From: Deltaproteobacteria bacterium
Lineage (GTDB): Bacteria > Desulfobacterota > GWC2-55-46
Direction: 5' to 3'
Assembly (NCBI GenBank): GCA_016212705.1
Contig: JACREU010000070.1
Location: forward strand, 72,390-136,389
DNA length: 64,000 bases
Position numbers and translations under genes: made by a program. Position 1 is the first letter of the stretch, and the number at the start of each line of letters is the position of its first letter. Positions 1 through 18,977 of this stretch are shown here, piece after piece. The notes below the pieces were generated by a model. It saw only the letters and a program-made list of their open reading frames with translations, did not search any database and was not told where the DNA came from.

Positions 1-40
1 GAGACGGCCTAAAACCACATTCTGAAAGGTGTCAAGTACG

Positions 41-1051
41 ATGGTAAACGCGAAGATACTGGTAGTCGGTTGCGGCTCGATAGGCAGAAGGCACATAAAT
101 AACCTCAAGTCGCTCGGCATAACGAGGTTCGTCCTCTGCGACCCGAACGCGGAGATGCTCAGGAAGGCCTCGGCCGGAATAGAGGGCGCGGCGCTTGTTG
201 CGGACTTAAAGGCCGCCCTTAACGAGAGGCCGGACGCGGCGATCATCTGCACGCCGTCTTCCATGCACCTCGAAATGGCGAGAGAGCTTGTCTCAAGGGG
301 CGTACACTGCCTCATCGAGAAGCCCATCTCACACACGATAGACGGTTGCGAGGAGCTCGAGAGAATAGTCGAGGAAAAGGGCGTCGTCGCCATGATGGCG
401 ATGTGTTACAGGTTCCACCCGGCGTTCCAGCACATCAAGCGCCTGCTCGACGCCAACGCCATCGGCAGGGTATACCACGCCAACTACTACGGAGGGCATT
501 ATCTCCCGGACTGGCACCCGCTCTCCGACTACAGGAAGGAGTACGCGGCGAAAAAGTCGCTCGGCGGCGGGGTGGTGCTGACATCCATACACGGGCTCGA
601 CAATGTGCGCTGGCTCTTCGGCGAAGTAGTTCAAGCGCACGCGTTCGTGGACAAGGTGAGTTCACTCGAAATGGATGTCGAGGACCTCGCGCTCGGCGTC
701 TTCAGGATGGAAAACGGCTCTTACGTGAGCTGGCAGACGGACTTTCTCCAGAGGACTGGTCAGCACAGGCTCGTAATAGCCGGGGAGCTCGGCACCATAA
801 GGGCGAACATGTCCGATGGGGAGATCGAGATATTCCACGTGGATACTGGAAGATGGACATCCGAGAGGGTCCTCTTCGAGATAAACACCATGTACGTGAA
901 GGAGATGAAGGAGTTCCTCGAGTGCGTCCATAAGAAGACGAGGCCGCTCTTGAATATCTCTGAAGGCATAAAGACGCTCAGGCTCGCCGCAGGGCTCAAG
1001 GCATCAGGCGACAGGATGGCCCGTAAAGGGGAGCTATGCGCGACGGCGTGA
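41..1051 (+). CDS. Gfo/Idh/MocA family NAD(P)-dependent oxidoreductase
   Basis: N-terminal Rossmann motif VVGCGSIGRRH and the EKP motif typical of the family. ATG at 41 with GAAAGGTG upstream is preferred over GTG at 29. Confidence 0.75.
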   Translation: MVNAKILVVGCGSIGRRHINNLKSLGITRFVLCDPNAEMLRKASAGIEGAALVADLKAALNERPDAAIICTPSSMHLEMARELVSRGVHCLIEKPISHTIDGCEELERIVEEKGVVAMMAMCYRFHPAFQHIKRLLDANAIGRVYHANYYGGHYLPDWHPLSDYRKEYAAKKSLGGGVVLTSIHGLDNVRWLFGEVVQAHAFVDKVSSLEMDVEDLALGVFRMENGSYVSWQTDFLQRTGQHRLVIAGELGTIRANMSDGEIEIFHVDTGRWTSERVLFEINTMYVKEMKEFLECVHKKTRPLLNISEGIKTLRLAAGLKASGDRMARKGELCATA

Positions 1052-2040
1052 CCATCTGGACAGAGGGCGGGGCTTATATAGGCATGGGCCATCTGGTCAG
1101 GTGCATAAACGTCGCCTCCGCGCTCGACGCGCTCGGCGTCTCGGTCAGCTTTCTCGTAAACAGCGACAGGGCCGTTATTGAGAGGCTCGACGGCGCCGGG
1201 CTCACGCATAGCGCATGTCCGGCAGGCTGGGAGCGCACTGAGGGCATTGCGCACGGGATAGTGCTCATCGACACCAGAAAGGACGTCACAACGGTTATAT
1301 CAGCGCTCAAGCGTTCCGGAAAGAAGGTCGTTCTACTCGACAATACCGTATCGATTGGGGCTGACCTCGTGATAATCCCATCCGCGCTTTACAGGGAAAA
1401 GGCGGACAAAGTCAAGGGTGGAGGAGAATTCGTGATAGTGAACGAGAAGTTTCGCTCGCGCAGAGGCCCTGAGATAAGGCACGCGTTACCCTTGAAGGTG
1501 CTCGTCACAATGGGCGGCGCCGACCCGTTCAGGCTGACCGAGCTGGTATTGAAGTCGCTTAGCGACATGGAAGGGGTGGAGGTCACGACCGTCATCGGCC
1601 CGGCATTCAGCCCCGAGAGGGACCTTAAGGCCCTCGTCAAATGGCGTCCTGGTTTCAGGTTCGCTGAGGGTATAAGGGACCTGAGCCCGCTCATGGCCGC
1701 GTCCCACGTGGCGATTACCGCCGTAGGGACTACGATATACGAGCTCGCCTGCATGGGCGTGCCGTCTATCCTCATAGGCAACTACGAAAGCGACAAGGCC
1801 GACCTCAGGGGTTTCGAGCGGCTCGGGGCCTCAATAAGCCTCGGCCATTATAAGGACGCTACACCAGAGGCGATACAAAGTGCGGTTAAGAAGTTCCGGG
1901 ACGAGGCGTTCTGGAGGAAGGCGTCCGAAAGGGCGCTTAAGCTCGTCGACGGCAGGGGAGCCGAAAGGATAGCCTCTCTCATAGAGGGTTTCTGCAACGA
2001 AGGGCCGGCTACGAAAACGGAAGGCGTACAGCATGCATAA
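1036..2040 (+). CDS. PseG/SpsG-like UDP-sugar hydrolase (nonulosonic-acid pathway, GT28-like fold)
   Basis: N-terminus IWTEGGAYIGMGHLVRCINVA matches the PseG/SpsG family. C-terminal Rossmann half contains LVTMGGADP. Start overlaps the upstream gene by 16 nt. Confidence 0.55.
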   Translation: MRDGVTIWTEGGAYIGMGHLVRCINVASALDALGVSVSFLVNSDRAVIERLDGAGLTHSACPAGWERTEGIAHGIVLIDTRKDVTTVISALKRSGKKVVLLDNTVSIGADLVIIPSALYREKADKVKGGGEFVIVNEKFRSRRGPEIRHALPLKVLVTMGGADPFRLTELVLKSLSDMEGVEVTTVIGPAFSPERDLKALVKWRPGFRFAEGIRDLSPLMAASHVAITAVGTTIYELACMGVPSILIGNYESDKADLRGFERLGASISLGHYKDATPEAIQSAVKKFRDEAFWRKASERALKLVDGRGAERIASLIEGFCNEGPATKTEGVQHA

Positions 2041-2932
2041 CGGCAGGCTCATAGACAAGGCCAACGGGTACGGGATAATCGAGTGCGAGACGTGCGGGTT
2101 CATCCACACCGACCCGATCCCATCGACAGAGGAGCTGGAGCGGGTCTACAGGGACGAATATTACAAAGAGGAAAAACCGCTCTACATAGAACGCACCATA
2201 GAGGACCTCCGGTGGTGGGAGACCGTCTACGACGACCGCTACGAATTCCTGGAAAATGAGCTCAAGGAGGGCAGGAGGTCCATACTCGACGTCGGCTCAG
2301 GCCCCGGATATTTTCTGAAGCGCGGAATGAAAAGGGGATGGAAGGTCCTTGGCATAGAGCCCTCAAGACAGGCCTCGGCTCACGCGAGGACGCTCGGCGT
2401 CGAGGTTGAGAACGCCTTTCTCGACGCCCGGCTCACCGCCTCCATCGGAAAACGCTTCGACGCCGTCCATCTGTCAGAGGTCCTGGAACACGTGCCGGAC
2501 CCGGCGGAGATATTAAAGCTCGCGCACACGCTGCTTGAAGACAACGGCATAGTATGCTGTGTCGCCCCCAACGACTTCAGCCCAGTGCAGAAGACCCTCT
2601 CCGAGAGGCTCAATTATTCGCACTACTGGCTCGCGCCTCCACACCACATAAATTATTTCAATCACGCGACACTCTCGGCGCTCCTCAAGAGGTGCGGGTT
2701 CTCTGTCATCGGCTCCACCTCGATGTTCCCGATGGATTTCTTCCTCCTCATGGGCGACAACTACGTGGGGAACGACGAGGTCGGCAGGGCCAGCCACTTA
2801 AGGAGAAAGCGGCTCGACATAATGTTGAACGAGCCGGAACTCAGGGAATTCAAAAAAGAGATGTACGGGATAATGGCCAAGCACGGAATCGGCCGTGAGG
2901 CCGTAATATTCGGCAAGAAGGAGAATAGATGA
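2033..2932 (+). CDS. class I SAM-dependent methyltransferase with N-terminal Zn-ribbon
   Basis: CETCG Zn-ribbon near the N-terminus. Motif I LDVGSGPGYF and post-I motif DAVHLSEVLEHVPDP are present. Confidence 0.65.
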   Translation: MHNGRLIDKANGYGIIECETCGFIHTDPIPSTEELERVYRDEYYKEEKPLYIERTIEDLRWWETVYDDRYEFLENELKEGRRSILDVGSGPGYFLKRGMKRGWKVLGIEPSRQASAHARTLGVEVENAFLDARLTASIGKRFDAVHLSEVLEHVPDPAEILKLAHTLLEDNGIVCCVAPNDFSPVQKTLSERLNYSHYWLAPPHHINYFNHATLSALLKRCGFSVIGSTSMFPMDFFLLMGDNYVGNDEVGRASHLRRKRLDIMLNEPELREFKKEMYGIMAKHGIGREAVIFGKKENR

Positions 2933-4194
2933 TGGCAGGAAAGACGCTCGTAATGCTCCCGGAATCCTACCCCGTAGCCAGACTCCTTTGCGAGTACGTC
3001 TTCAGTGAGGAGTCTTCGCGCCCCGACCTCCTGATACTCAGGAAGCAGAGGCCCGGCTTCGAGAGGATAATATCGGAGTTCGCCTTCGGGAAGGTACATG
3101 AGATAGACGAGGAGTACTACGGGAGGGTCACGAAGCCGGAGTCGGCGGGGTTTCTCCGCGAGATGATGAGGTCGCCGTATGACGTCGCCTTCTTTCCCTT
3201 CAACACGTTCAGGGCCAACGCCTTCCTCTTCGGGTCTTTGCTCGCTAAAGAGGTGCGGGCCGTGAATTCATCGCTCTATCATAGAAAGAAACTCCCGGTG
3301 GTGAGCTTCAGTCTCGGCGAGGAGAGGAGGCTACCCGCGAACACCCCCTGGGCCCCGATAATGGACGAGGTCCTCCGGACCAAGGACAGGATAGTAGATA
3401 TCCTCAAGGAGAAAGGCGACAGGTTCGAGGTCTCCGGCGAGAGGCCGACCTTCGGCATACTCCACGGCTTTGCGCACGATCTTGAGATTTTCTGCAAGTA
3501 CGCGCTTGGCGCGCTCTACGCTAAGGATAAGCGCGTGCTCGACATAGGCGGCGGGCTCGGCTTCGGGTCGTTCCTCCTGTCGCGCTTTGCGGACAAGGCA
3601 TTTTTCGTCGATAGGTCCAAAGACGCCGTTCGGTTCGTCGAGGAGATGTGGGTGGAGAGCGCCCCTAACATCGTCCCCATCTGCGGGGACGCCGACGCGA
3701 TCGATAACGGCAAGGGCTCGTTCGACTGCATATTCCTGATGGACGTCCTGGAGCACGTCCCGGACCCGCTCGGCCTTTTAAACAAGGCTCGGAGGCTCCT
3801 TAAAAATGACGGCACGCTGATCGTTACGACCCCGGAGGAGGACTACTACCCCTACAGCGTCTGCCCGCCGGAGCGCTGGAGCGATCCGGAGGAGAAGCTA
3901 ATAGACGAGGCCATATGGCCGTGGCACATACAGGCGCTGGGCGAGGAGAGGCTCCTGCCGCTCCTTAAGGCCGCGTCTTTCGAGGTGGCCGAGAAGAGTT
4001 ACACGACGTATCTCAAGGGCTACGAATTCAGCGGCGACCTGAAAGAGGCGAGGGCGCGCGGCGACGTGGATTCGGTCATAGGGTCTCTGAACGATCTTAC
4101 CAAATGGGACATCCGCGACTTCGGCCTAACGTACGAGCGCGACCCGTACTTCTCAGCCGCCTCCTACAATATCGTCGCAAGAAAGGCGGCCTGA
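2929..4194 (+). CDS. two-domain protein: unknown N-terminal domain + class I SAM methyltransferase
   Basis: C-terminal half carries VLDIGGGLGFGSF and DCIFLMDVLEHVPDP. The N-terminal ~190 aa has no recognisable motif. Start overlaps the upstream stop. Confidence 0.5.
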   Translation: MMAGKTLVMLPESYPVARLLCEYVFSEESSRPDLLILRKQRPGFERIISEFAFGKVHEIDEEYYGRVTKPESAGFLREMMRSPYDVAFFPFNTFRANAFLFGSLLAKEVRAVNSSLYHRKKLPVVSFSLGEERRLPANTPWAPIMDEVLRTKDRIVDILKEKGDRFEVSGERPTFGILHGFAHDLEIFCKYALGALYAKDKRVLDIGGGLGFGSFLLSRFADKAFFVDRSKDAVRFVEEMWVESAPNIVPICGDADAIDNGKGSFDCIFLMDVLEHVPDPLGLLNKARRLLKNDGTLIVTTPEEDYYPYSVCPPERWSDPEEKLIDEAIWPWHIQALGEERLLPLLKAASFEVAEKSYTTYLKGYEFSGDLKEARARGDVDSVIGSLNDLTKWDIRDFGLTYERDPYFSAASYNIVARKAA

Positions 4195-4195
4195 G

Positions 4196-5290
4196 GTGAC
4201 AAGGACCAGGGCCGCGATACTGGAATCCAGGAACGCCCCTCTGAGCGTCCGGGAGGTCTCTCTATCGGAGCCAATGGAGAGGGAGGTCCTCGTGAAGATG
4301 GAGATGGCGGGTCTTTGCAGGAGCGACCTCAACGCGATAGTCGGCCACACACGCTACGACATGCCGCTTGTCCTCGGCCACGAGGGCGCGGGGACCGTCG
4401 TCCGCACAGGCAAGGGCGTCACGTCACTTAAAGAGGGCGACCGCGTCGTTTTGAGCTGGGCCGCCTTCTGCGGAGACTGCTTCTTCTGCAAAAAAGGGCT
4501 CAACCACCAGTGCCATACCGTCGCCTGGCCCCGCGGCAAGGGCCTCCTTCCGGACTGGACGACACGTTTCAGCGAAGGAGATAATCCCATATTCCACTTC
4601 AACGGGGTCTCGTCATTCAGCGAATACACGGTCGTCTACGAGACCGGGTGCGTGAAGGTCGATGACGGCATACCCTTCGAAGTGGCATCCGTCGTCGGCT
4701 GTTCGGTCGTGACAGGCATAGGGGCGGTATATAATACCGCGAATGTGGAGGAAGGCTCGACAACGCTCGTCGTAGGCGGAGGCAACGTAGGCATGTCCGT
4801 CATCCAGGCCCTTAAGATAAAGGGCGCCGCGCTGATCATAGCAGTCGACCCGAAGGCGGAGAAGCATACGGCGATAAAAGACGCGGGCGCGGATATCGTA
4901 CTCTCGGATATTTCAATTGATGAAATAAGGAAGGCGACCGGGGGCTTCGGCGTCGATTACGCCTTTGACGGGGCAGCGACGGAGGAGACGCTGAACGCCT
5001 CTTTGGCCGCTGTAAGGAGGGCAGGGACCGTCGTCATGGTCGGCTCCCCGCACCCGCTCGCGAAGTACTCGGTCCAGCCGATAGAGTTCCACCTTGAGAA
5101 GAAGATCATAGGCTCGCTCTACGGGTCTTCAAACCCGGTGCGCGACATACCGAGGCTACTTGAGTTCTACAGGCAGGGGAGGCTCAAACTCGACGGCTTT
5201 ACCGCTGGCAGTTACCGGCTTGAGGAAATAAACGCCGCCATAAAGGCGCTTGAGAACAACGGCGGCAAATATACCATCACATTCAATTAA
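4196..5290 (+). CDS. Zn-dependent alcohol dehydrogenase (MDR family)
   Basis: GLCRSDL and GHEGAGTVV zinc-ligand motifs, plus a GGGNVG NAD-binding motif. GTG start. Confidence 0.75.
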   Translation: MTRTRAAILESRNAPLSVREVSLSEPMEREVLVKMEMAGLCRSDLNAIVGHTRYDMPLVLGHEGAGTVVRTGKGVTSLKEGDRVVLSWAAFCGDCFFCKKGLNHQCHTVAWPRGKGLLPDWTTRFSEGDNPIFHFNGVSSFSEYTVVYETGCVKVDDGIPFEVASVVGCSVVTGIGAVYNTANVEEGSTTLVVGGGNVGMSVIQALKIKGAALIIAVDPKAEKHTAIKDAGADIVLSDISIDEIRKATGGFGVDYAFDGAATEETLNASLAAVRRAGTVVMVGSPHPLAKYSVQPIEFHLEKKIIGSLYGSSNPVRDIPRLLEFYRQGRLKLDGFTAGSYRLEEINAAIKALENNGGKYTITFN

Positions 5291-5302
5291 CCTAAGGAGG
5301 GT

Positions 5303-5995
5303 TTGATGAACATCTTTCTGGACACCGCTAACATAGAGGAGATAAAAAAGGCTAAGAGGTGGGGGGTGCTGAAGGGGCTCACGACGAACCCATCGATTGT
5401 AGCGAGGGAAGGGAAGGACTTCGTCAAACTCGCCAAGGAGCTCTGCGATCTCGTTCACCCGTACCCTGTAAGCCTTGAGGTCGTCGACAGGACCGGCGAG
5501 GGGATGGCCGAGCAGGCCCGCACGATTTCCGAGCTCGGCAGGAACGTCGTCGTGAAGCTACCTGCGAACCCCGAAGGCCTCGCGGCCTTGAACCTCCTTA
5601 AGGGCGAGAACATAAAGACGAACCTGACGCTCGTATTCTCGACGTCCCAGGCGCTCCTCGCGATGAGCGCGGGTGCAACGTACGTAAGCCCATTTATCGG
5701 CAGGCTTGAGGACAGGGGCTACGAGGGTATAGGGCTTGTCCGCGACATCATGCACATACATAACGCCTATAAGTTCAAGACCGAGATCATAGCGGCGTCG
5801 ATACGCGACCCGCACCAGGTTATCGAGGCCGCGAAGACCGGCGCGCACATCATCACGATGCCGTTCGCTGTCCTTGAAAAGATGCTCCTTAACACCATGA
5901 CGGACACGGACCTCGAAAAATTCCTCTCCGACTGGGAAAAGGTCCCCGGCAGGGGAGAGGCCTTCTCAAGAAGGAGGGTCGAAAACGTTGGCTAA
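5303..5995 (+). CDS. fructose-6-phosphate aldolase / transaldolase type 3B (Fsa/TalC)
   Basis: MNIFLDTANIEEIKK...GLTTNPSIV is the hallmark of the Fsa/TalC subfamily. Length ~230 aa. AGGAGG RBS upstream. Confidence 0.8.
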   Translation: MMNIFLDTANIEEIKKAKRWGVLKGLTTNPSIVAREGKDFVKLAKELCDLVHPYPVSLEVVDRTGEGMAEQARTISELGRNVVVKLPANPEGLAALNLLKGENIKTNLTLVFSTSQALLAMSAGATYVSPFIGRLEDRGYEGIGLVRDIMHIHNAYKFKTEIIAASIRDPHQVIEAAKTGAHIITMPFAVLEKMLLNTMTDTDLEKFLSDWEKVPGRGEAFSRRRVENVG

Positions 5996-7022
5996 CCGAT
6001 TCAAGGCGGCCTTGTTCAAAGGCCCCGGAGAGCTTGAGGTAAGGGAGGTGTCCGCGCCGGAGTTGAACCCCGGAGAGGTCCTCGTAAGGGTGCGCGCATG
6101 CGGCATCTGCGGGAGCGACTTGAACATCTTCAGGAGAGACCCGCCCATCCCGAAGTACTGGGGCGGGCACGAGATAAGCGGAGAGGTTGCGGCGATCGGG
6201 CCTGGCGTCGAGGGGCTGAACGCGGGAGAGCGCGTGAGTGTCGCGCCGCTTATCCCGTGCGGCAAATGCGAGTTATGCAGGGCAGGGCTTGAAAACATCT
6301 GCCCGGACTGCGTATTCATAAGCTTCAACGCGCGCGGCGGCTTTTCCGAGTTCGTCGTGGCGCCCCGGGAGAACATATACAGGCTACCCGATAAAATGGG
6401 TTTTGACGAGGCGGTCTTATTGGAGCCGCTCGCCGACGTCCTGCACTCTTTTAAGAGGGCAGGCGATATTGCCGGGAAAATGATAGTCGTAGTCGGTTGC
6501 GGCACCATAGGGCTTTTGACCGTCGTTGCGGCAAAGGCGCTCGGCGCGCAAAAAATAGTAGCCATCGGCAAGTACGGCCACCAGAGGAGGCTTGCGACCA
6601 TGCTCGGGGCAGACGCGGCCCTCGGTTCAACCGACGCCGGAATTGAGAGGCTTGTTATTGAGGCGCTCAAAGGCGCGAAGGCCGACCTTGTATTCGAGAC
6701 CGTCGGCGGCTACGAGAGCGAATCGATTGCGCAGTCTTTGAATATCCTCAGGCCAGGCGGTACGCTCATGCTCTCGGGCGTACACTACAAGACGCCAAAC
6801 ATGAACCTTAAGTTCCTGACCGAGAGGGAGATAGAGATAAAGGGGACGCAGAGGTACAGGAGGGAGGACTACGCCTCTGCCATAGACCTCTATGCGAAGG
6901 GCGCGATAAACGGTTCACTCCTCGTCACCCACAGGGTGAGCCTTGAAGAAATTATGAAAGGATATTCCATCGCGTTCGACAAGGACGCTAACAGCGCGGT
7001 AAAGGTGGTCGTATGCCCGTAA
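5988..7022 (+). CDS. Zn-dependent alcohol/polyol dehydrogenase (sorbitol/threonine DH-like)
   Basis: ACGICGSDLNIF and GHEISGEV motifs; VVGCGTIG Rossmann motif. Likely TTG start. Confidence 0.7.
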   Translation: MANRFKAALFKGPGELEVREVSAPELNPGEVLVRVRACGICGSDLNIFRRDPPIPKYWGGHEISGEVAAIGPGVEGLNAGERVSVAPLIPCGKCELCRAGLENICPDCVFISFNARGGFSEFVVAPRENIYRLPDKMGFDEAVLLEPLADVLHSFKRAGDIAGKMIVVVGCGTIGLLTVVAAKALGAQKIVAIGKYGHQRRLATMLGADAALGSTDAGIERLVIEALKGAKADLVFETVGGYESESIAQSLNILRPGGTLMLSGVHYKTPNMNLKFLTEREIEIKGTQRYRREDYASAIDLYAKGAINGSLLVTHRVSLEEIMKGYSIAFDKDANSAVKVVVCP

Positions 7023-8242
7023 AAGGTAAGACGATTCTCATCATCTCAGGCGGCGTGGAGGCTGTCCCTATAATTGAGAGGGCAAAGGCCTTGGGGCTTA
7101 AGGTCGCGGTCTCGGACGGCAACCCGGACGCACCGGGCTTCAGGTTGGCTGACTTTAAGATCATCGCAAGCACGTATGACGAAAAGAAGACGGCGGAACT
7201 CGCTTTCGAGCTGAACGAGGCCGAGAGGATAGACGGCGTCATGGCCGCGGCGGCGGATGTGCCTTTGACGGTCGCCGCTGTCGCCGAAAGGTTAAAACTA
7301 CCCGGCATAAGCGTAAATTCGGCCAGGATAGTGGCGGATAAGCTCCTTATGAAGGAGACCTTTTCCGCCTCAGGGGTCCCGGTGCCGTGGTTCTCGCAGG
7401 TGAGGAGCGCGGTACACCTTGAAAAATTATTGTGGGAGAAAAAGACGCTTGTTATAAAGCCGGTGGACAGCAGAGGCGCAAGGGGTGTTGTCCGCCTCGT
7501 CGAGGGCGTCGACATCGCCTGGGCGTTTGACGAGGCTATGAAAAACTCGCCTTCCTGCAGAGTCATGGCCGAGGAGTGGGTGAACGGAAGGCAGATAAGC
7601 ACCGAATCCATTATAACACCCGATGGAGTAATAACCCCGGGGCTCTCCGACAGGAACTACGAACAGCTTGAGCGGTTCGCGCCTTTCGTAATAGAGGACG
7701 GCGGTGACCTCCCCGCGATTTTAACCGTGGATGAGAGGGCAGGGATAGACCGGATAATAGGAAAGGTCGCTCGCGCCATAGGCATGAAGAGCGGGACGAT
7801 AAAGGGCGATATAGTGATAGGGGAGTCCGGCCCCGTCGTCATAGAGGTCGCGGCGCGCTTAAGCGGCGGGTATTTTTGCAGTCACACGATACCGCTCTCA
7901 ACGGGCACGGACTTTGTCGGGGCCGCGATACTGCTGGCCCTTGGCGAGGAGATAGGGTTGAACGATTTCAGGCCGAAGGCCGCGAAGGCCGTCTGCCAGA
8001 GGTTCCTTTTTCCTGAGCCGGGAATAGTAAGAAAGGTATACGTCCCGGAGATGCAGGAGGAATCGCTTGCCATGCTCAAGGTCTATGTGAAGGTGGGCGA
8101 CGAGGTAAAGAGGATCACGAGCCACCCGTGCAGGGCGGGCATGGCGGTCACGACCGGAGATACGCGCGAAGGGGCGAGGGCCGCCATAAAGAGGGTCTTC
8201 GACAGGGTTACTGTCGTTGTAGAGCCCGGGATACCTGTTTGA
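7013..8242 (+). CDS. ATP-grasp domain enzyme
   Basis: Pre-ATP-grasp Rossmann N-terminus. Central KPVDSRGARGV region and EEWVNGRQISTESI match carboxylate-amine ligase family topology. Confidence 0.6.
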   Translation: MPVKGKTILIISGGVEAVPIIERAKALGLKVAVSDGNPDAPGFRLADFKIIASTYDEKKTAELAFELNEAERIDGVMAAAADVPLTVAAVAERLKLPGISVNSARIVADKLLMKETFSASGVPVPWFSQVRSAVHLEKLLWEKKTLVIKPVDSRGARGVVRLVEGVDIAWAFDEAMKNSPSCRVMAEEWVNGRQISTESIITPDGVITPGLSDRNYEQLERFAPFVIEDGGDLPAILTVDERAGIDRIIGKVARAIGMKSGTIKGDIVIGESGPVVIEVAARLSGGYFCSHTIPLSTGTDFVGAAILLALGEEIGLNDFRPKAAKAVCQRFLFPEPGIVRKVYVPEMQEESLAMLKVYVKVGDEVKRITSHPCRAGMAVTTGDTREGARAAIKRVFDRVTVVVEPGIPV

Positions 8243-8259
8243 ATGGAGAGGGGACCAAG

Positions 8260-9765
8260 ATGAAAAAGATACTTCTCGTCCAGCCTAACATGAGGGTCGC
8301 CACCTCCGGGCAAAGGATTGTTTATCCGCCGATCGGCATCATGTACCTCGCATCTGTCCTTGAGAAAAAAGGCTACGAGGTAGAGATACTCGACTGCCAG
8401 ACCGAGGGGTTGGATAAGGGCGCGGAGGTCATAGACGGATACGTGGAAGTCGGCATCCCAATTGACGAGATAGCCGGGAGGATAACGGCCTCAAGGCCGG
8501 ACCTCGTCGGCATTACCTGCAACTTTTCGGTCATGGTCCCGCACATGATGGAGGCGTCGCGGCTTGTTAAAAAGCTCTTTCCCTCAGTGCCGGTCGTCGC
8601 AGGGGGCAACCACCCGACGTCGCTTCCGGAAGAGGTGATGGGAGAGGGTTCAATCGACTACGTCATCATGGGCGAGGGCGAGGTCTCGTTCCCCATGCTG
8701 ATAGAGGCGATCGTGGAAGGCAAGGGCTTCGAGTCCGTCCCAGGCCTCGTCTGGAGGAGGGACGGGGCGATTATAAAAAACAAGATGGGCGCCTTAATAC
8801 ACGACCTCGACAGCCTTCCGTATCCGGCGTGGCACCTCTTCCCTTATGAGAAGTACAGCAGACACTACAAGCCCCGCGCAGTCACCTGGGGGGAGGCGCA
8901 GGCTATGCCTTCGGTCCTGACGACCCGGGGGTGCGCCGGAGGGTGCGTCTTCTGCTCGGTCCACAAGACCATGGGGAGCAAGTTCAGGGCGAGGAATCTC
9001 GACGACGTCTTCAAGGAGATACGCTTCCTTGTGGATACCTATAAGATAAAGAAGCTCATGATAATCGACGACAACTTCACGCACAACAAGAACCGGGCCA
9101 AGGAGTTCTGCGACGAGTTCAAGAAACAGGGGCTCGATATTGAATTGCACTTCATGGTGCTCGCGCTCTGGTGCATGGACGAGGAGTTGATCGACAAGCT
9201 CAAATCCATCGGGTGCGCCTCGATGGGCTTTGCTATCGAGTCAGGCGTGCAGGACATACTCACTAATGTCGTAAAGAAGCCCCTGAAGCTCGTCCGCGCG
9301 ATGGAACTCCTGAAATACGCGCGCTCTCAAGGCATACACCTTACAGGGACTTTTGTAATAGGTTTTCCGGGCGAGACGAAGTTGGACATAAGGAGGAGCC
9401 TGTACATGGCGAACTACTCGGGGCTTTTTGACAGCAGGGAGATATACATTGCCACACCGCTCCCCGGCTCCGCGCTCTTCGAGCAGTGCGTGCGGGAAGG
9501 GCTCCTCGCCGAAGGCTTTTCGTACTCGAAGGTCGAGGTAGTAAAGCCGAATATAAAGACAAAGGACTTTTCTCCGGACTTCATAACGACGATACTTGAG
9601 GCCGACAGGACGCACCACCTCATAAAGACCAATCCCAGGAGGACGCTGAGGCTCGTAAGGGACGTCTGGAGGAGGAGGCGCGAGCACTTCCTGCCCGTCT
9701 TATACGAGACCTCGAAGATGTTCGTCAAATACGACTTTCTGAGACTCAGGGAGGAGTACCCTTGA
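8260..9765 (+). CDS. B12-binding domain radical SAM protein
   Basis: N-terminal cobalamin-binding fold (KILLVQPN...GIMYLASVL). CxxxCxxC motif RGCAGGCVFCSV. ATG at 8260 with GGAGAGGGG RBS; the longer ORF from 8128 is rejected. Confidence 0.75.
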   Translation: MKKILLVQPNMRVATSGQRIVYPPIGIMYLASVLEKKGYEVEILDCQTEGLDKGAEVIDGYVEVGIPIDEIAGRITASRPDLVGITCNFSVMVPHMMEASRLVKKLFPSVPVVAGGNHPTSLPEEVMGEGSIDYVIMGEGEVSFPMLIEAIVEGKGFESVPGLVWRRDGAIIKNKMGALIHDLDSLPYPAWHLFPYEKYSRHYKPRAVTWGEAQAMPSVLTTRGCAGGCVFCSVHKTMGSKFRARNLDDVFKEIRFLVDTYKIKKLMIIDDNFTHNKNRAKEFCDEFKKQGLDIELHFMVLALWCMDEELIDKLKSIGCASMGFAIESGVQDILTNVVKKPLKLVRAMELLKYARSQGIHLTGTFVIGFPGETKLDIRRSLYMANYSGLFDSREIYIATPLPGSALFEQCVREGLLAEGFSYSKVEVVKPNIKTKDFSPDFITTILEADRTHHLIKTNPRRTLRLVRDVWRRRREHFLPVLYETSKMFVKYDFLRLREEYP

Positions 9766-11801
9766 TGTCAAAGGCGCCGCGACTGCACCTTTATACCACG
9801 TTTCACTGCAACCTCGCCTTCTCGACGATTGAGCGCGGGGCCTTCCCTACTGTCATCGAGAGGTGCTACTGGCCAATCCTCCGGCTCGCGGAAGACGGGT
9901 TCCCGGTCGCCATTGAGATGACCGCATGGACCCTTAAGGAGGTCAACGCGCTCGACCCTGGTTTTGTTTCAAGGCTTAAGGAGCTGTGGGATTTGAAGAA
10001 GATCGAGTTCATCGGCTCGGGATTTTCGCAGGCTATCTTCCCGCTCATCCCGACTGAAGTCAACCGATGGAACCTTGAGGCCGGGATGAGGCATTATACG
10101 GAGATACTCGGCAGACGCCCGGAAGTCGCGCTCGTGAACGAGCAGACGTTTTCACGCGGCCTCGTTGACCTTTATAAGGCCGCGGGCTACAAGTCCGTCA
10201 TAATGGACTGGAACAACTCTCATAAATACAATAATTTTCCGAAGGGGCTCGTCTATTTCCCGCAGAGGGCAAAGGGGCTCGCAACCGATATTGAGGTCGT
10301 CTGGAGCCATTCCATCGCCTTCCAGAAGTTCCAGAGGCTCATACACGGCGGCGTATCCACGGAAGAGTACATGGAGTACCTCGCCACGCATTATTCCAAT
10401 AGCGAGGAGAGGTCCTTTGTCCTCTATACCAACGATGCCGAGGTCTTTGATTACAGGCCCGGCAACGAAGAGGTCAAAAAGACCGAGTGGGCGCGCATAC
10501 GCGACCTGCTCTCCCGCATACGAGGGGACGAGAGGTTTACGCTCTCCACGCCCGGGAGGGTGAGCGAGTTTTTCAAGGGTAACCCGAAGGCGGGACACAG
10601 TCTCTCGCTTGAGTCAACGGAGACGCCGGTCGTATGCAAGAAGCAGGACAAATATAACCCCGCTCGCTGGGCCGTAGCCGGGAGGGACAGCGTCCACATC
10701 AACACCGAGTGCTACAGGGTCTACAAAAATATTTCAAGACTGATGGAATCCGGCGCGCTCTCCACGGACGAGGCCGACGAGTACAAGGAGCTGATCTCCG
10801 ACCTCTGGGGGAGTGATTTCAGATCCAATACGATCGACGAGAAGTTTCAGTACTTCCAGAACAGGCTCGGGTGGCTCAAAACCGAGACGGAGCGGCTCCT
10901 CAAGAGGACGCCTGTTATCGCCGGAGGCGCTCCGCCCCCCGCGCTTCAGGCCGGAGAGCCTTTAGTACACGAGGCAGGGAGGCCCTCAAAGAGAGGGGCC
11001 GGGATAACAAGGGCGGAAAACTCGCTTATCATAACGACCGGGACGGTCGAGGCGGAGTTCCTCCCCTCAAGGGGATTCGCCATTAAAAAGGCCGTCTTTC
11101 CCGGGGTCTTCGACAAGCCTCTCATAGGCACTATCCCGCACGGTTACTATGAAGACATAAGGCTCGGCGCAGACTTCTTCACCGGCCACCTTATACACGT
11201 TTCGAGGGACGGGAAGAAGACGACGGACCTTAAACCCGCCACGGCGGATATAACTGAAAACGACGCATCCGTCGTGCTTGAGGCGAAGATGCCTCTGGAC
11301 ATTGGGTTCCTGACGAAGACTTACGAGATATCGAAGACCGAGCCGTCGATATCCCTGAGCCTCAAGCTCAAGGTAAACGGCCTCCTCGCCTCCTCCTTGA
11401 GGCTCGGGATATTCACGTTCTTGCCGGGCTCTTTCGACGCTGATACCCTCTGGTACGAATCTATAAACGGAGGCGCGGGCCCGGAGAGGTTTTCCCTCAA
11501 GGGGAAAACCGTTTCCCATGACGAGCCCGTGAGCCAGGCGGTCTCTGCATCAAGCTGTCTCGGCGCGACCGACGGACGCGTAAGGATAGGGGACTGCCGG
11601 AAGGCCCTGGAGATATCGACGGACAAGTCTAAGCTCTTTTCGGTCCCTATGCTCAGGTACATGGAGCTTGCCGAGGAGGGCAAGTTTTTCCTCCGGCTAC
11701 AGCATTCCGTCGGAGAGGTCGACGACACCGCGTGGTGGGTGTGGCGCGGGGTCAACGAGATAACCTTCAACATAAAGGCCCTCAAAGGGGATGGCAAATG
11801 A
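9765..11801 (+). CDS. GH57-like / polysaccharide-deacetylase-like barrel protein (flagellin glycosylation island)
   Basis: N-terminal ~350 aa resembles the (beta/alpha)7 GH57 fold (LHLYTTFHCN, IEMTAW, VNEQTF). C-terminal half unassigned. Function uncertain. Confidence 0.35.
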   Translation: MSKAPRLHLYTTFHCNLAFSTIERGAFPTVIERCYWPILRLAEDGFPVAIEMTAWTLKEVNALDPGFVSRLKELWDLKKIEFIGSGFSQAIFPLIPTEVNRWNLEAGMRHYTEILGRRPEVALVNEQTFSRGLVDLYKAAGYKSVIMDWNNSHKYNNFPKGLVYFPQRAKGLATDIEVVWSHSIAFQKFQRLIHGGVSTEEYMEYLATHYSNSEERSFVLYTNDAEVFDYRPGNEEVKKTEWARIRDLLSRIRGDERFTLSTPGRVSEFFKGNPKAGHSLSLESTETPVVCKKQDKYNPARWAVAGRDSVHINTECYRVYKNISRLMESGALSTDEADEYKELISDLWGSDFRSNTIDEKFQYFQNRLGWLKTETERLLKRTPVIAGGAPPPALQAGEPLVHEAGRPSKRGAGITRAENSLIITTGTVEAEFLPSRGFAIKKAVFPGVFDKPLIGTIPHGYYEDIRLGADFFTGHLIHVSRDGKKTTDLKPATADITENDASVVLEAKMPLDIGFLTKTYEISKTEPSISLSLKLKVNGLLASSLRLGIFTFLPGSFDADTLWYESINGGAGPERFSLKGKTVSHDEPVSQAVSASSCLGATDGRVRIGDCRKALEISTDKSKLFSVPMLRYMELAEEGKFFLRLQHSVGEVDDTAWWVWRGVNEITFNIKALKGDGK

Positions 11802-13705
11802 CGGTATTTGAGAAGAACCGCCGTAAGATAGCCTCAAAAGACCCCGCTGTCTTCGAAAGGCTTGAAAATTGCCGGTCCGTGGAATTAGAAGAGGCGAAGT
11901 CTGGCGGAGCCACCTTCAGATACAAGGGCATATACTTCCACAGCAGATACAACCCCGCAACTGAAGCCGACGTTCAGGCAGTGGAGATGGCGGGCAAAAA
12001 GCCTGATTGGGTATTTCTCTTCGGGCTCGGTTGCGGGCACCTCTTAAGCGCGCTCGTTCGAAAGGGGTTTAAAAAGGTCATCGTCTTCGAGCCGTCAACT
12101 GAGATATTGAAAGGCGCGCTGGAGAATATCGACCTCTCTTCGGTCTTTGACGAGGAGAAGGTCTTTCTGGCGGTAGATATGCACGCGGCGATAGAGAGGC
12201 TCCGCGGTGAGACCGAAGGGTTTGATAATCTCCTTGTCTACTCCACGGCCCCGTACAGGTCCGTCTTCCCGAAAGAGCTCTCTGATTTCACGAACAGGAT
12301 ACACAACGCGCACATTACGAACCAGGTAGGCATAAAAACGGACATGAAGTCCCGGAGCGCCTGGATAGATAACTACCTCTCGAACCTGAAGGCGCTGCCT
12401 TTTGCCCCGCCCATCGATGTCCTACGGGATAAGTTCAAGGGCGTGCCGATGATAATCGCCGGGGCCGGGCCGTCGCTTAGGAAGAACGGAGAGCTCCTCA
12501 GGGAATTCAAGGGCAGGGCGCTTATAGTCGCGGCCATCACCTCGTATAAGCCGCTCTTGAAGCTTGGGGTAGTCCCGGACTTTGTAATAGCCTCCGAGAT
12601 GGTCGACCTCCCCGAGTACTTCACCTTAGGGGAGGACGACAAAAAGACGAGGCTCATCCTGGGGGAGCTTTCGCACCCCGGGATGTTCGGGAGGGATGTA
12701 AAGGGCAAGTTCGTTTTTTTCAGCCCATACCTTGCGTTATCCTCCTCTCATGCCGGGCTCTGGGGGAGCTCGTACTTCCCGGCCATAGGCGGGTCCGTGA
12801 CGACAGCGGCGCTCGACATGGGTATAATGTTCGGTTGTAACCCGATAACCTTCGTCGGGCAGGACCTCTCATTCGGGGAAAACGAGACGCACGCCCCAGG
12901 CGGCGTCTATGTGGCGCAGAACGTGAGGATAGACAAGGAAAACGGGCTGATATCCGTCGAGGACGAGTACATAAACGATAAGCAGACATACACCTACAAG
13001 CTCCAGTGGTTAAAGGGCCTCTCGGGAAAACCAGTGCCTTCGAAGTACGACTGGGCGACCTTCCACCAGTGGTTTGAGAACTACATGCATTATCTTGAAA
13101 AGGAAAGGCCCGGCGTAAGGGTCATAAACGCTACCGAGGGCGGGGCGTACATAGAGGGAATGGAGCATACGACATTAAGGCACGTGCTCGAAACCTGCCT
13201 GAACAGGGAACTGACCCTTGAGGCGACCATCGACGAGGCGGTTGCGTCGAGGCCGAGGATAGACTATACTTCTCTCGAAGCGTCTTTTAGTGATACGGCC
13301 GCGGTCTTGAGCCGGGTCAACAGGCTCGCCGCCTCAATTCTCAAGGAGGCGGCTGAGGCGAAGGGTATCTATACTAAAATGGGGCTCACCTCCGGGCTAA
13401 AGGGGAATGTAGACAGGATCAAGAGGCTTGAGGAATCGATATTCGATGAATCTGACCGCGCCAAGTTCATGTGGGAGGCGCTTATCAATAATACCTATGC
13501 CCTTAAGGAGTACCTCAAAGAGGATACGGACGGCAAGGCAGGAGAGGGCGTCCAATTTCTCCGGGACCTCGAAGCCGTAATCGTATCCTACAAGTCTATG
13601 ACAGAGGTCTGCCGGAGGTTCGCAAAAAGGTTCGAGGAGGCGGCCTCATCCATAAGGGCGGCCCAAGGCAGTGAAGAAAACAGGGGTATTGCCGCCGGGC
13701 TATGA
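11798..13705 (+). CDS. maf: motility accessory factor (Maf) family flagellin glycosyltransferase (DUF115/MptE-like)
   Basis: MIIAGAGPSLRKN and FVIASEM motifs are typical of Maf proteins. Size ~635 aa. ATGA start/stop overlap with upstream gene. Sits directly upstream of flagellin. Confidence 0.7.
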   Translation: MTVFEKNRRKIASKDPAVFERLENCRSVELEEAKSGGATFRYKGIYFHSRYNPATEADVQAVEMAGKKPDWVFLFGLGCGHLLSALVRKGFKKVIVFEPSTEILKGALENIDLSSVFDEEKVFLAVDMHAAIERLRGETEGFDNLLVYSTAPYRSVFPKELSDFTNRIHNAHITNQVGIKTDMKSRSAWIDNYLSNLKALPFAPPIDVLRDKFKGVPMIIAGAGPSLRKNGELLREFKGRALIVAAITSYKPLLKLGVVPDFVIASEMVDLPEYFTLGEDDKKTRLILGELSHPGMFGRDVKGKFVFFSPYLALSSSHAGLWGSSYFPAIGGSVTTAALDMGIMFGCNPITFVGQDLSFGENETHAPGGVYVAQNVRIDKENGLISVEDEYINDKQTYTYKLQWLKGLSGKPVPSKYDWATFHQWFENYMHYLEKERPGVRVINATEGGAYIEGMEHTTLRHVLETCLNRELTLEATIDEAVASRPRIDYTSLEASFSDTAAVLSRVNRLAASILKEAAEAKGIYTKMGLTSGLKGNVDRIKRLEESIFDESDRAKFMWEALINNTYALKEYLKEDTDGKAGEGVQFLRDLEAVIVSYKSMTEVCRRFAKRFEEAASSIRAAQGSEENRGIAAGL

Positions 13706-13765: not shown

Positions 13766-14359
13766 ATGGCCAAGGTCTATCTCGATAACATGCAGATCGA
13801 TTACGAGGACACCGGCAAGGACTCAACGATCCGGGAGCTCGTTAGCGCCCTTGACAAGGAACTATTCTCTCTCAAGCGTTTCATCTTTGAGATAGCCGTG
13901 GACGGGACAGACGCGCCGCACGGATGGAGGGGAGGGGAGTTGTCGGGGAGAAAGCTCTCTGAGTGCGCTGATATCCGGCTTACGACCACATCCGTCGAAG
14001 ACATGGCGATAGTTGGGCTCGATACCGTGCGCGAGTATATAAATGTCATCGGCGAGACGATAGAGGCCTGCGTGAAGGACTTGAGGATCGGGTCTCCTTC
14101 CGCAGAGGTGGCCTTCTCGACGGTATTCGATGGCGTAATTGAGGTGGTAAAGACCATGGACGCCCTCTCACAGGGGACGGTCCGCTATAATATGAAGCTT
14201 TTCAAAAAGAAGCCGGAGGAGTACTACAGCCCCCTCCACCAGAAGCTTGAAACCATTACAAATGTCAGGAAAAGCGGGGACACCGTCCTCCTCGCGGACG
14301 TATTGGAGTATGAGCTCAAGCCTCTTTTGGAGGAGATAAAAGAAGAGGTCTTCCATTAG
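13766..14359 (+). CDS. hypothetical protein between maf and fliC
   Basis: ORF of 197 aa with CAGGAGAT RBS. No recognisable motif. Position suggests a flagellin-associated function. Confidence 0.4.
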   Translation: MAKVYLDNMQIDYEDTGKDSTIRELVSALDKELFSLKRFIFEIAVDGTDAPHGWRGGELSGRKLSECADIRLTTTSVEDMAIVGLDTVREYINVIGETIEACVKDLRIGSPSAEVAFSTVFDGVIEVVKTMDALSQGTVRYNMKLFKKKPEEYYSPLHQKLETITNVRKSGDTVLLADVLEYELKPLLEEIKEEVFH

Positions 14360-14372
14360 GCTAAAAAAAAGT

Positions 14373-14399
14373 TAAAGTAAAAAAACTCACCGCCGATAT
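14373..14399 (+). promoter_or_regulatory. sigma-28 (FliA) type promoter for fliC
   Basis: TAAAGT-N13-GCCGATAT close to the FliA consensus TAAA-N15-GCCGATAA. Preceded by an A8 tract. About 120 nt upstream of fliC. Confidence 0.55.
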
Positions 14400-14518: not shown

Positions 14519-15349
14519 ATGTCATTAGTCATCAATACAAACGTCGCCGCACTCGTAGCCCAGCAGAACCTCGCCACTTCGAACTCCCAGCTGAAAGTAA
14601 GCGTACAGAGACTCTCATCCGGCTTCAGGATCAACAGCTCAGCGGACGATGCCGCGGGCCTTGGCCGCGCCGACCAGCTTAAATCACAGTCGAGGATGAT
14701 CCAGGCCTCCATAAGGAACGTCAACGACGGCGTGAGCGCCATGGAAATAAGCGACAAGGTCGCCGAGCAGATCACGAACATCGTCACAAGGATGGGCGAA
14801 CTGGCCGCAAGCGCCGCGCAGGGCACCCTGGACACCACCAACAGGACCTACTACAGCGACGAGTTCGACAAGCTCAAGAGCGAAATCGACAGGATCGCGA
14901 ACACCACCGAGTTCGGCGGCTACAAGCTCATCAACGGCGACACGTCCTATCTTACGATGTACATAGGCTTCAAGAACTCCACGAACGACCAGCTCTCCGT
15001 ATCGCTAAAGGTCTTGACCACCGGCGCCAGCGGCCTTAACCTCTCGAGCGGCATACTCGGCTCCATCACCGGGGCCCTCTCCGCCCTCGATTCCGTCAGC
15101 GCGGCTTTGAAGACCATCAACGACGCAAGAGCCATCTACGGCGCCTCCTCCAACAGGCTGACCGCGGCGCTTTCGAACCTCCAGGTGACCTTCACGAACT
15201 ACCAGGCCGCCGAATCGAGGATAAGGGACGCGGACTTCGCCTACGAGACCGCGCAGTACACAAAGAACCAGATAATGGTCCAGGCCGGCACCTCGGTGCT
15301 CGCCCAGGCCAACACACTGCCGCAGAACGCGCTTTCGCTTCTTAGGTAG
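14519..15349 (+). CDS. fliC: flagellin
   Basis: Canonical N-terminus MSLVINTNVAALVAQQNLATSNSQL...QRLSSGFRINSAADDAAGL and C-terminus LAQANTLPQNALSLLR. AGGAGGG RBS. Short form, 276 aa. Confidence 0.9.
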   Translation: MSLVINTNVAALVAQQNLATSNSQLKVSVQRLSSGFRINSSADDAAGLGRADQLKSQSRMIQASIRNVNDGVSAMEISDKVAEQITNIVTRMGELAASAAQGTLDTTNRTYYSDEFDKLKSEIDRIANTTEFGGYKLINGDTSYLTMYIGFKNSTNDQLSVSLKVLTTGASGLNLSSGILGSITGALSALDSVSAALKTINDARAIYGASSNRLTAALSNLQVTFTNYQAAESRIRDADFAYETAQYTKNQIMVQAGTSVLAQANTLPQNALSLLR

Positions 15350-15413: not shown

Positions 15414-15782
15414 ATGAGCATGGAATTCGCGATAAAGGACATTTCAAGGGCCGCAACTGAAAGGCCCGGCGAGGCATCCGGCAAGACCGCCGCCGCTAAA
15501 AAGGCCGAGGTGCGCTCGGGCGTAATCACGGACGCGGCCGAGGCCAAAAAGGACCTGCCCCCGAAGGAAGTCGAGGAGATAGCCTCCGACGTCCAGATCC
15601 ACCTGAAGAGGCTCAACACCGAGCTCAGGTTCGAGGTCGACAATGAATCGGATGAAATGATCATAAAGATCATCGACCCCGAGACCAAGCAGGTGATAAG
15701 GCAGATACCGTCTGAAGAGCTCCTTGCCATAAGGGAGCGGATGAAAGACCTTATAGGGGTCCTTTACAACGCCAGGTCCTGA
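15414..15782 (+). CDS. flaG: flagellar protein FlaG
   Basis: C-terminal IIKIIDPETKQVIRQIPSEELLAIRERM matches the FlaG family. ~120 aa. Located between fliC and fliD. Confidence 0.75.
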   Translation: MSMEFAIKDISRAATERPGEASGKTAAAKKAEVRSGVITDAAEAKKDLPPKEVEEIASDVQIHLKRLNTELRFEVDNESDEMIIKIIDPETKQVIRQIPSEELLAIRERMKDLIGVLYNARS

Positions 15783-17150: not shown

Positions 17151-17158
17151 GAGATCCC

Positions 17159-18953: not shown

Positions 18954-18977
18954 GAGGGTCGCGTCAGGGAAGACAAG

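Follow-up and report, generated by a model that had tools for sequence, protein, structure and literature searches.

A flagellin glycosylation island with a ligase/GH57-like cassette that may build nonulosonic acids with custom N-acyl groups

What sugar is made by a gene string that precedes a flagellin gene and combines the marks of nonulosonic acid biosynthesis with a transaldolase, an ATP-grasp ligase, a cobalamin-dependent radical S-adenosylmethionine (SAM) enzyme and a GH57-like protein? The question is raised by a stretch of 64,000 nucleotides (nt), here called the window, from a Deltaproteobacteria bacterium (assembly GCA_016212705.1, contig JACREU010000070.1, positions 72,390 to 136,389, forward strand). 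Flagellin sugars matter for filament assembly, motility, immune recognition and phage attachment, and the chemistry of their substituents is mostly undescribed beyond a few pathogens. We propose, at a probability of roughly 55%, that the product is a nonulosonic acid of the pseudaminic acid (Pse) type which bears a custom-built N-acyl substituent other than acetyl and which is placed on flagellin. The evidence for this proposal includes the enzymes of the Pse core in relatives of the island and the way in which its ligase varies with the enzymes around it.

The gene string

Eleven tightly packed, co-directional genes occupy 41-13705 of the plus strand. Their domains were assigned by Pfam and NCBIfam as follows:

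g1, 41-1051, + strand: NAD(P) oxidoreductase of the GFO/IDH/MocA family, sugar dehydrogenase type (GFO_IDH_MocA and its C-terminal domains)
g2, 1036-2040, + strand: PseG-like GT-B protein (GT28-like), candidate nucleotide-sugar hydrolase (TIGR03590, Glyco_tran_28_C)
g3, 2033-2932, + strand: class I SAM methyltransferase (Methyltransf_23, Pfam) with an N-terminal Cys motif
g4, 2929-4194, + strand: second SAM methyltransferase (Pfam); its N-terminal ~190 amino acids (aa) have no family match
g5, 4196-5290, + strand: zinc-dependent alcohol dehydrogenase (Zn-ADH), resembling class III and NDMA-dependent ADHs (ADH_N and ADH_zinc_N; TIGR03989 at 282 bits, cutoff 440)
g6, 5303-5995 (ATG at 5306), + strand: short (subfamily 5) transaldolase (TAL_FSA, TIGR00875)
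g7, 5988-7022, + strand: zinc-dependent polyol/secondary-alcohol dehydrogenase, resembling Tdh, sorbitol dehydrogenase, IolM and galactitol-1-phosphate 5-dehydrogenase (Pfam and NCBIfam)
g8, 7013-8242, + strand: ATP-grasp carboxylate-amine ligase of the L-amino-acid-ligase (LAL) type (ATPgrasp_N, ATP-grasp_3, LAL_C2)
g9, 8260-9765, + strand: cobalamin (B12)-binding class B radical SAM enzyme (B12-binding 87.8 bits, Radical_SAM 68.2 bits)
g10, 9765-11801, + strand: GH57-like protein of 678 aa with an N-terminal GH57 match (Pfam)
g11, 11798-13705, + strand: Maf flagellin nonulosonic acid glycosyltransferase (MptE-like and Maf_flag10_N)

The spacing between neighbouring genes, from –16 to +17 nt, fits a single operon. 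Positions 1-28 hold the stop codon and 3′ end of a further plus-strand gene, indicating that the operon begins outside the window; its counterpart in the relative L001 (79% identity) is a class III aminotransferase (Aminotran_3), and such a gene lies directly 5′ of g1 in L003 as well. This region is most likely the last two-thirds (3′ side) of an operon for flagellin O-glycosylation. The proteins of the window are 84–100% identical to those of metagenome-assembled genomes (MAGs) of uncultured groundwater 'Deltaproteobacteria' (Thermodesulfobacteriota), and some 16 species-level genomes show the same order of genes, with protein identities of 47–98%, which argues that the arrangement did not arise by chance. 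Judged by the lengths of homologues, the longest-open-reading-frame (ORF) starts of g9 (8128) and g11 (11732) lie too far 5′. The original prediction for this DNA had described a contiguous plus-strand island of such enzymes. Pfam and NCBIfam recovered every domain that it named, each in its place; left unnamed was g1, the oxidoreductase that opens the string.

Some of the assignments can be refined. The best NCBIfam matches of g1 were IolG, UDP-GlcNAc 3-dehydrogenase and aldose 1-dehydrogenases, all below cutoff, and protein cluster P0121 is 100% identical to it. For g2, the PseG model TIGR03590 was the best NCBIfam match (102.9 bits, cutoff 153.55), Glyco_tran_28_C scored 23.5 bits, and a sequence search against solved structures (PDB) returned no match. 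Residues 1-194 of g4 gave no Pfam match. The nearest solved structures to g8 were the L-amino acid ligase BL00235 and a PurD-like protein. With an N-terminal B12-binding domain and a radical SAM core that carries the CxxxCxxC motif (CAGGCVFC in the translation), g9 has the features of the class B radical SAM enzymes; its best NCBIfam match was the Sden_1168 family (264 bits, cutoff 575), its relatives in the PDB are AprD4, TsrM-like proteins and TokK, and it is probably a C-methyltransferase.

A pseudaminic acid core upstream in relatives

The gene content upstream of g1 was taken from syntenic relatives with the same cassette (L001, L003-L005). Their order before g1 is flgM, flgN, flgK, flgL, csrA, fliW, PseB, PseC, a NeuB-family synthase, a CTP_transf_3 cytidylyltransferase and the class III aminotransferase, which resembles glutamate-1-semialdehyde aminomutase; some carry a second GFO gene between PseC and the synthase. 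In L003, PseB (TIGR03589, 522.5 bits, cutoff 407.75) and PseC (TIGR03588, 498.2 bits, cutoff 423.5) both scored as equivalogs, and L004 and L005 have PseB and PseC at the same positions. The NeuB-family protein of L003 reached 318.9 bits against the PseI model (cutoff 340.25) and 355.4 bits against the NeuB model (cutoff 399.65), while the CTP_transf_3 protein matched KdsB and PseF weakly, below the equivalog cutoffs.

Of the genes called in L001 and L003-L005, none encodes a GNAT or hexapeptide acetyltransferase that could serve as PseH, the rest of these genomes lying outside the search. Nor was there an acetyltransferase among the 25 listed of the 63 families that were matched by 40 unclassified cassette proteins. 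A candidate for a displaced PseH, the only hexapeptide protein in the window (22671-23189), proved to be γ-carbonic-anhydrase-like and was set aside. The lack of PseH in these islands, which do have PseB and PseC, fits a non-acetyl substituent put on by the ATP-grasp ligase; most simply, this enzyme would acylate the amine to which PseH normally transfers an acetyl group. It had been suggested earlier that pse genes, absent from the window, might lie upstream and that the island makes a modified or novel nonulosonic acid for flagellin. In syntenic relatives, pseB and pseC and divergent pseI- and pseF-like genes indeed occur there, pseH being the one that did not turn up; the second suggestion agrees with the Pse-type core, the flagellar setting and the missing PseH.

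A widespread modular cassette

The unusual enzymes of the island are not a one-off. We collected 80 loci around GH57-like genes, clustered their ORFs and compared them together with the window (81 loci). Among the 61 loci with enough sequence, 59 have an ATP-grasp gene on the same strand within 5 kb 5′ of the GH57-like gene; it is the immediate 5′ neighbour in 32 of the 81, where the two ORFs usually overlap or lie no more than 30 nt apart. A nonulosonic acid marker (Maf, PseG-like protein, NeuB or cytidylyltransferase) is present in 42/49 loci. Second only to the ATP-grasp gene in how widely it accompanies the GH57-like gene is a methyltransferase of the g3 type, found in 44–46 of the 80 loci and in each case on the same strand. 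PseG-like genes co-occur with the GH57-like gene in 35–39 of the 80 loci, short-chain dehydrogenase/reductase (SDR) genes in 39, and B12-dependent radical SAM genes in about 30.

The genes between the methyltransferases and the ligase vary. Across 52 loci, this slot is filled by a transaldolase (19), a split transketolase (13) or an IlvB-like thiamine diphosphate (ThDP) enzyme (3), and transaldolase and transketolase never occur in the same locus. The second methyltransferase, g4, is confined to transaldolase-type islands (15–16 loci). A KduI/IolB isomerase is found in 10 of the 52, in most cases with the ligase on one side and the GH57-like gene on the other, and scattered loci contain PanB, Ldh_2, an iron-dependent ADH, an aldo-keto reductase, a sulfotransferase or a pyruvyltransferase; Zn-ADHs occur among the loci as well. 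Together with the SDRs, methyltransferases and B12-dependent radical SAM enzymes, this is the set of enzymes that one would expect to make decorated hydroxy acids. The variation also separates the two most constant proteins. In KduI-type islands the GH57-like protein is ~60% identical and the ligase only 28–32%, whereas in transaldolase-type islands of more distant MAGs the values are ~50% and 53–60%, respectively. Ligase identity hence tracks the cassette type and GH57-like identity the phylogeny, which suggests that the ligase recognises the variable moiety and that the GH57-like protein recognises one that stays constant.

Two side observations concern the same loci. In five non-flagellar loci, L079 (Methanocalculus taiwanensis), L053, L058, L076 and L084, two or three ATP-grasp genes lie 5′ of the GH57-like gene, which hints at multi-step amide (peptide-like) substituents. 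In L050, L056, L061, L064, L067 and L085, a gene which by eye resembles UDP-glucose 6-dehydrogenase (cluster c32) adjoins the GH57-like gene, making a uronic acid precursor a possibility.

Thirty of the 52 loci are flagellar, with Maf and fliC downstream; the other 22 are not, some being plainly polysaccharide loci, and in distant lineages the cassette likewise occurs within non-flagellar polysaccharide loci. This distribution raises the alternative that the accessory genes serve lipopolysaccharide (LPS), capsule or S-layer and are mere neighbours of the flagellar genes, or that the transaldolase and the ADHs belong to housekeeping central metabolism. Omnitrophota cassettes do sit in polysaccharide loci with flippase and glycosyltransferase genes, and others occur in archaea and in Saccharibacteria, lineages generally without bacterial flagella (for Saccharibacteria, to our knowledge). 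In the lineage studied here, however, the string lies in overlapping frames between flgKL-csrA-fliW and Maf-fliC in ~16 species, and the start of Maf overlaps the stop codon of the GH57-like gene (ATGA). Moreover, the transaldolase is fixed between two ADHs, and transketolase or ThDP enzymes take its slot elsewhere. A role apart from the flagellum therefore seems very improbable, and synteny with a capsule or LPS locus in place of the flagellar genes, which the original prediction had named as the observation that would speak against it, was not what this lineage displayed.

No description of this cassette came up in literature searches that paired Maf or flagellin glycosylation with radical SAM, transaldolase or GH57, and a survey of flagellar glycosylation islands in Clostridium does not mention a ligase, a hydrolase or an aldolase. 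The island sits within a widespread, uncharacterised ligase/GH57-like module, and the modular cassette to which its unusual enzymes belong is in part equivalent to sfmABCDE of Shewanella.

The transaldolase

The enzyme between the two Zn-ADHs had been taken for an aldolase of the Fsa/TalC type; its position holds, and its active site is that of a transaldolase. In addition to a TAL_FSA match in Pfam (184 bits), g6 exceeds the cutoff of TIGR00875 (269.5 bits, cutoff 245.95), and among solved structures it scores 245 bits against the transaldolase of Thermotoga maritima, 205 against that of Thermoplasma acidophilum and 121 against FSA of Escherichia coli. The catalytic Asp, Glu, Lys (Schiff base) and Thr are all present, a Phe stands in place of the Tyr of Fsa, and the phosphate-binding Arg/Ser/Arg are intact. 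We take the Glu-to-Gln and Phe-to-Tyr positions, in line with studies of TalB, FSA and TacTal, to discriminate Fsa from transaldolases. All 18 island copies, g6 included, share the Glu (S-x-E-V) and Phe (S-P/L-F-x-G-R) signature together with the phosphate site. A dihydroxyacetone-utilising Fsa aldolase is ruled out by this signature; with the phosphate site, it indicates that g6 works with sugar phosphates and not with free dihydroxyacetone.

A sugar-phosphate enzyme in this place also suits a different role for the trio of ADH, transaldolase and ADH, possibly joined by the GFO protein and the aminotransferase: they could build or extend the sugar backbone, either by C3 extension of an aldose to a higher-carbon ketose or towards an ulosonic acid that is not 3-deoxy, and the ligase would attach no more than an amino acid or a similarly simple group. 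The transaldolase LmbR, which carries out a C3 extension for the octose of lincomycin, is a precedent. Besides the sugar-phosphate site kept in every island transaldolase, this role would agree with the split transketolases, likewise sugar-phosphate enzymes, that fill the same slot elsewhere, with the resemblance of g7 to polyol-phosphate dehydrogenases and with the LAL type of g8. Yet the same islands retain the NeuB-family synthase as well as PseB and PseC, suggesting that a conventional nine-carbon core is still made. The covariation of ligase identity with the variable enzymes further suggests that the ligase handles their product, and the precedents from Shewanella and Treponema denticola, discussed below, each have an elaborate substituent on an ordinary core of the Pse type. 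We therefore regard a backbone role as unlikely and prefer a transaldolase that contributes to the N-acyl group.

The GH57-like protein

The most conserved element of the cassette matched Pfam GH57 at 50.4 bits (cutoff 21.2), with no match in NCBIfam, and its family is conserved over the full length. An AlphaFold (AF2) model of g10 with a predicted local distance difference test (pLDDT) value of 90.8 consists of a (β/α)7 barrel followed by a C-terminal β-sandwich, the GH57/GH38 fold, and its top Foldseek matches, across both domains, were 1K1X (E = 1.9e-23) and GH38 mannosidases. In a profile search, the invariant residues E127, D225 and E227 aligned with E123 (nucleophile), D214 (acid/base) and E216 of the 4-α-glucanotransferase of Thermococcus litoralis. 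A catalytic Glu and Asp, the (β/α)7 barrel and the C-terminal β domain, which together characterise GH57 enzymes, are thus all found in g10, and the kept Glu/Asp pair predicts a retaining glycosidase or an enzyme of the transglycosidase type.

Compared with the T. litoralis enzyme (1K1W/1K1X) and the GH38 α-mannosidases, g10 has the same two-domain architecture and the same nucleophile Glu, acid/base Asp and neighbouring Glu, but its identity is merely ~12–14% and its C-terminal domain has invariant polar residues of its own. It also differs from the glucanotransferase in context, which is nonulosonic acid modification and not α-glucan metabolism. The links to an ATP-grasp gene and to nonulosonic acid markers in the compared loci argue for a substrate other than an α-glucan. 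The family comprises ~670 clusters (50% identity) at E ≤ 1e-30, with 504 relatives among species-representative genomes; its carriers include Omnitrophota, Saccharibacteria, Dehalococcoidia, Acidobacteriota, Planctomycetia, a MAG of the Thermoplasmata and a cultured archaeon, Methanocalculus taiwanensis.

The strict pairing of ligase and GH57-like protein, together with minimal loci (L046, L087) in which these are the only two accessory genes beside the core nonulosonic acid genes, could mean that the two proteins carry out a two-step remodelling. A barrel of the GH57/CE4 superfamily would expose an amine or a carboxylate, for instance by de-N-acetylation or by release of a uronic acid from UDP-GlcA, and the ATP-grasp enzyme would re-ligate a partner, possibly as an amide of a uronic or ulosonic carboxylate. 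The HS:2 glucuronamide ligase Cj1438 of Campylobacter jejuni is a precedent for such an amide. The UDP-glucose 6-dehydrogenase-like genes of cluster c32, so classified by reading the sequence, would fit this scheme where they adjoin the GH57-like gene in several loci. So would KduI/IolB, a member of a uronate isomerase family, beside it in 10–14 loci, and a GH57-like protein that follows phylogeny and not cassette type. Against this, the active site of g10 is GH57-like (Glu nucleophile, Asp acid/base) with no CE4 metal site, enzymes with this fold are not known to have nucleotide sugars or N-acetyl groups as substrates, and the description of the Shewanella sfm operon contains no such gene. 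Remodelling by the pair is accordingly rather unlikely in our view, and the custom-built acyl group remains our preferred reading.

Proposed biosynthesis

On the basis of domain identities, synteny, the exchange of enzymes in the slot and the conservation of catalytic residues, we propose the following route, in which the substrates, the order of the steps and the site of acylation are all suggestions. PseB and PseC, which would be encoded just 5′ of the window, would yield UDP-4-amino-4,6-dideoxy-β-L-AltNAc. In PseH's stead, g8 would activate a carboxylic acid as the acyl phosphate and link it as an amide to the free amine, either at the stage of the UDP-sugar or later. To prepare this acid, g5 may oxidise an alcohol to an aldehyde acceptor, to which g6 would add a three-carbon dihydroxyacetone unit (a C3 ketol) from a ketose phosphate; g7 could then reduce the newly formed ketone, a sequence that the collinear order of the three genes would suit. 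The acid would be O-methylated by g3 and g4 and C-methylated by g9, and g1 with the upstream class III aminotransferase may provide a further oxidation and amination step. The PseG-like g2, the NeuB-family synthase and the cytidylyltransferase would finish and activate the sugar. Finally, the Maf protein g11, possibly with the DUF8042 protein encoded after it, would transfer the sugar in the cytoplasm, with Ser and Thr of FliC as the attachment sites. As an obligate partner of the ligase, g10 would act on the constant part of the pathway, that is, on a nucleotide sugar or the sugar core.

A broader claim can be made only tentatively, as we consider it possible but doubtful: ATP-grasp and GH57-like proteins would form a previously unrecognised, cross-phylum module that rebuilds the N-substituents of nonulosonic acids, with a GH57-fold enzyme acting on a non-glucan substrate (a nucleotide sugar or the nonulosonic acid core). 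In the window, this module would be fed by a hydroxy acid pathway with transaldolase and B12-dependent radical SAM enzyme and would give rise to an undescribed flagellin glycan.

Comparison with known systems

The closest described design is that of Shewanella oneidensis MR-1. Its sfmABCDE genes, which adjoin maf-2 (maf-2/glfM) and are required for flagellin modification, encode a NeuB-like protein, an IlvB-like ThDP enzyme, an SDR, a methyltransferase and an ATP-grasp protein (Bubendorfer et al. 2013, PMC3765264). The flagellin glycan there comprises a mono-N-acetyl Pse-like sugar of 274 Da and a nitrogen-free C9H16O7 moiety with zero to two O-methyl groups, and the strain has PseB and PseC without clear orthologues of PseH, PseG, PseI and PseF (PMC3765264). 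Both systems are Maf-adjacent in a flagellar region and have PseB and PseC (here in relatives), no clear PseH, a divergent NeuB-family synthase (here upstream in relatives), a SAM methyltransferase and an ATP-grasp ligase. Sister loci of the island (L023, L050, L069, L086) even carry the IlvB-like ThDP enzyme and the SDR; sister islands combine these two with a methyltransferase and the ligase, as sfm does, and hold the ThDP enzyme and SDR in the slot that varies. The window, in contrast, lacks these two and has Zn-ADH, transaldolase and Zn-ADH in their slot, and it adds a B12-dependent radical SAM enzyme, a second methyltransferase, a GFO protein with an aminotransferase, and the GH57-like protein, the last of which is absent from the sfm description. 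We also considered SfmA as the maker of the C9 moiety of Shewanella, whose mass fits a reduced dideoxy-nonulosonic acid, and dropped the idea because SfmA is the sole PseI-like synthase in that organism.

Relative to the canonical pathway of Campylobacter, Helicobacter and Aeromonas, in which PseB, PseC, PseH, PseG, PseI and PseF make CMP-pseudaminic acid for transfer by Maf/PseD/PseE, the islands share PseB and PseC equivalogs (in relatives), a PseG-like protein, a NeuB-family synthase, a cytidylyltransferase and a Maf gene by the flagellin gene. They differ in that no PseH was found among the genes covered, in that the PseG-like protein, the synthase and the cytidylyltransferase stay below their equivalog cutoffs, and in having seven or eight enzymes more. 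The predicted class of product has a counterpart in the flagellin glycan of T. denticola, which shows that a Pse-configured sugar can bear an O-methylated polyhydroxy acyl group. The KduI, SDR, methyltransferase and ligase of the sister islands would fit an acyl group derived from a 3-deoxy-hexonate. The window has a transaldolase and ADHs, not KduI and SDR, and its acyl group would differ. The island is thus a variant of Maf/Pse flagellin glycosylation with a design related to that of Shewanella sfm, and the known paradigm is unbroken.

Several points weigh against a Pse-type sugar with a custom acyl group. The carrier is an uncultured MAG, and the pathway is a prediction from its genes; the Pse core, in turn, is presumed from relatives and not from the window's own upstream DNA, and a PseH gene may lie in another part of the genome. 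The ligase belongs to the LAL type, which would also suit an amino acid, instead of a hydroxy acid, as acyl donor, and some loci have two to three ligases. With its phosphate-binding residues intact, g6 may just provide a sugar-phosphate precursor, or it may contribute to the backbone and not to the side chain. The likeness to Shewanella is drawn from domain architecture as described in the paper. Lastly, the scheme assigns no specific role to the GH57-like protein, the element that the cassette conserves best.

The island, and roughly 500 species-level genomes with the same GH57-like/ligase pair, point to a general plug-in system. In it, diverse acyl groups would be assembled by exchangeable C–C-bond-forming enzymes (transaldolase, transketolase, ThDP enzyme) with the help of reductases, methyltransferases and radical SAM enzymes, and a ligase would join them to sugars that resemble sialic acid. 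If this is true, it would provide roles for the long-unexplained sfm genes of Shewanella, the first non-glucan function for a GH57-fold family, and enzymes for making modified nonulosonic acids.

Flagellar context and neighbouring genes

Downstream of the string, the order is Maf, DUF8042, fliC, flaG, fliD, fliS and fliT; the family matches for the last four agree with synteny in L001 and L002:

g12, 13766-14359, + strand: DUF8042 protein (homologues carry PF26154)
14371-14399, + strand: sigma-28-type promoter-like site, TAAAG-N14-GCCGATAT, read from the sequence 5′ of fliC
fliC, 14519-15349, + strand: short flagellin of 276 aa with a Ser/Thr-rich central stretch (Flagellin_N and Flagellin_C)
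flaG, 15414-15782, + strand
fliD, 15822-17150, + strand
fliS, 17159-17578, + strand
fliT-like gene, 17568-17888, + strand

The Maf protein g11 matched MptE-like at 106.5 bits (cutoff 34.6) and Maf_flag10_N at 27.8 bits (cutoff 23.5), and it scored 106 bits, below cutoff, against the PseD domain model. Maf lies directly 3′ of the GH57-like gene in 41 loci. FliC is the presumed acceptor of the glycan. Its gene starts 814 nt 3′ of Maf. The original prediction had placed the string immediately upstream of fliC; it is not strictly adjacent, since the DUF8042 gene and the sigma-28-like promoter intervene.

The DUF8042 protein (~200 aa) always lies between Maf and fliC (32–36 loci), and the family has an invariant D..D..EYE motif close to the C-terminus. 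A homologue search gave 16 close relatives, none with a name, and comparison with solved structures (PDB) revealed no relative. A FliS-like cofactor of Maf, in the manner of GlfM, was considered for this protein; profile–profile comparison with FliS gave a probability of 0.1%, and the lack of similarity leaves a GlfM-like assignment unsupported by sequence. The protein may be an unrecognised accessory factor of Maf, conceivably analogous to GlfM in function.

A scan for the exact sigma-28 consensus gave no match, the site at 14371-14399 being near-consensus only: its second element, GCCGATAT, agrees in 7/8 bases with the TAAAG-N14-GCCGTTAA type that is quoted for S. oneidensis (PMC3765264). 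Its location suggests that fliC is transcribed separately from the glycosylation operon.

Long antisense ORFs on the minus strand cover g7, g8 and fliS/fliT (5966-6670, 6988-7611 and 17060-17854). None matched a known family; most likely they are not genes but by-products of the 58% GC content. After fliS and fliT, the region 18351-21064 encodes a response regulator, a fusion of response regulator, GAF and HD-GYP domains and a PilZ protein; kept in L001 and L002, it looks like a cyclic di-GMP control unit attached to the filament operon. Two further carbohydrate-related genes of the window have no link to the island, a PMT_2/ArnT-like membrane glycosyltransferase (31386-33137, + strand) and a GH13 glycogen branching enzyme resembling GlgB (54331-56301, – strand). 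The remainder of the window holds housekeeping genes, among them those for IMPDH, GMP synthase, enolase, a fumarase-class lyase and PolX.

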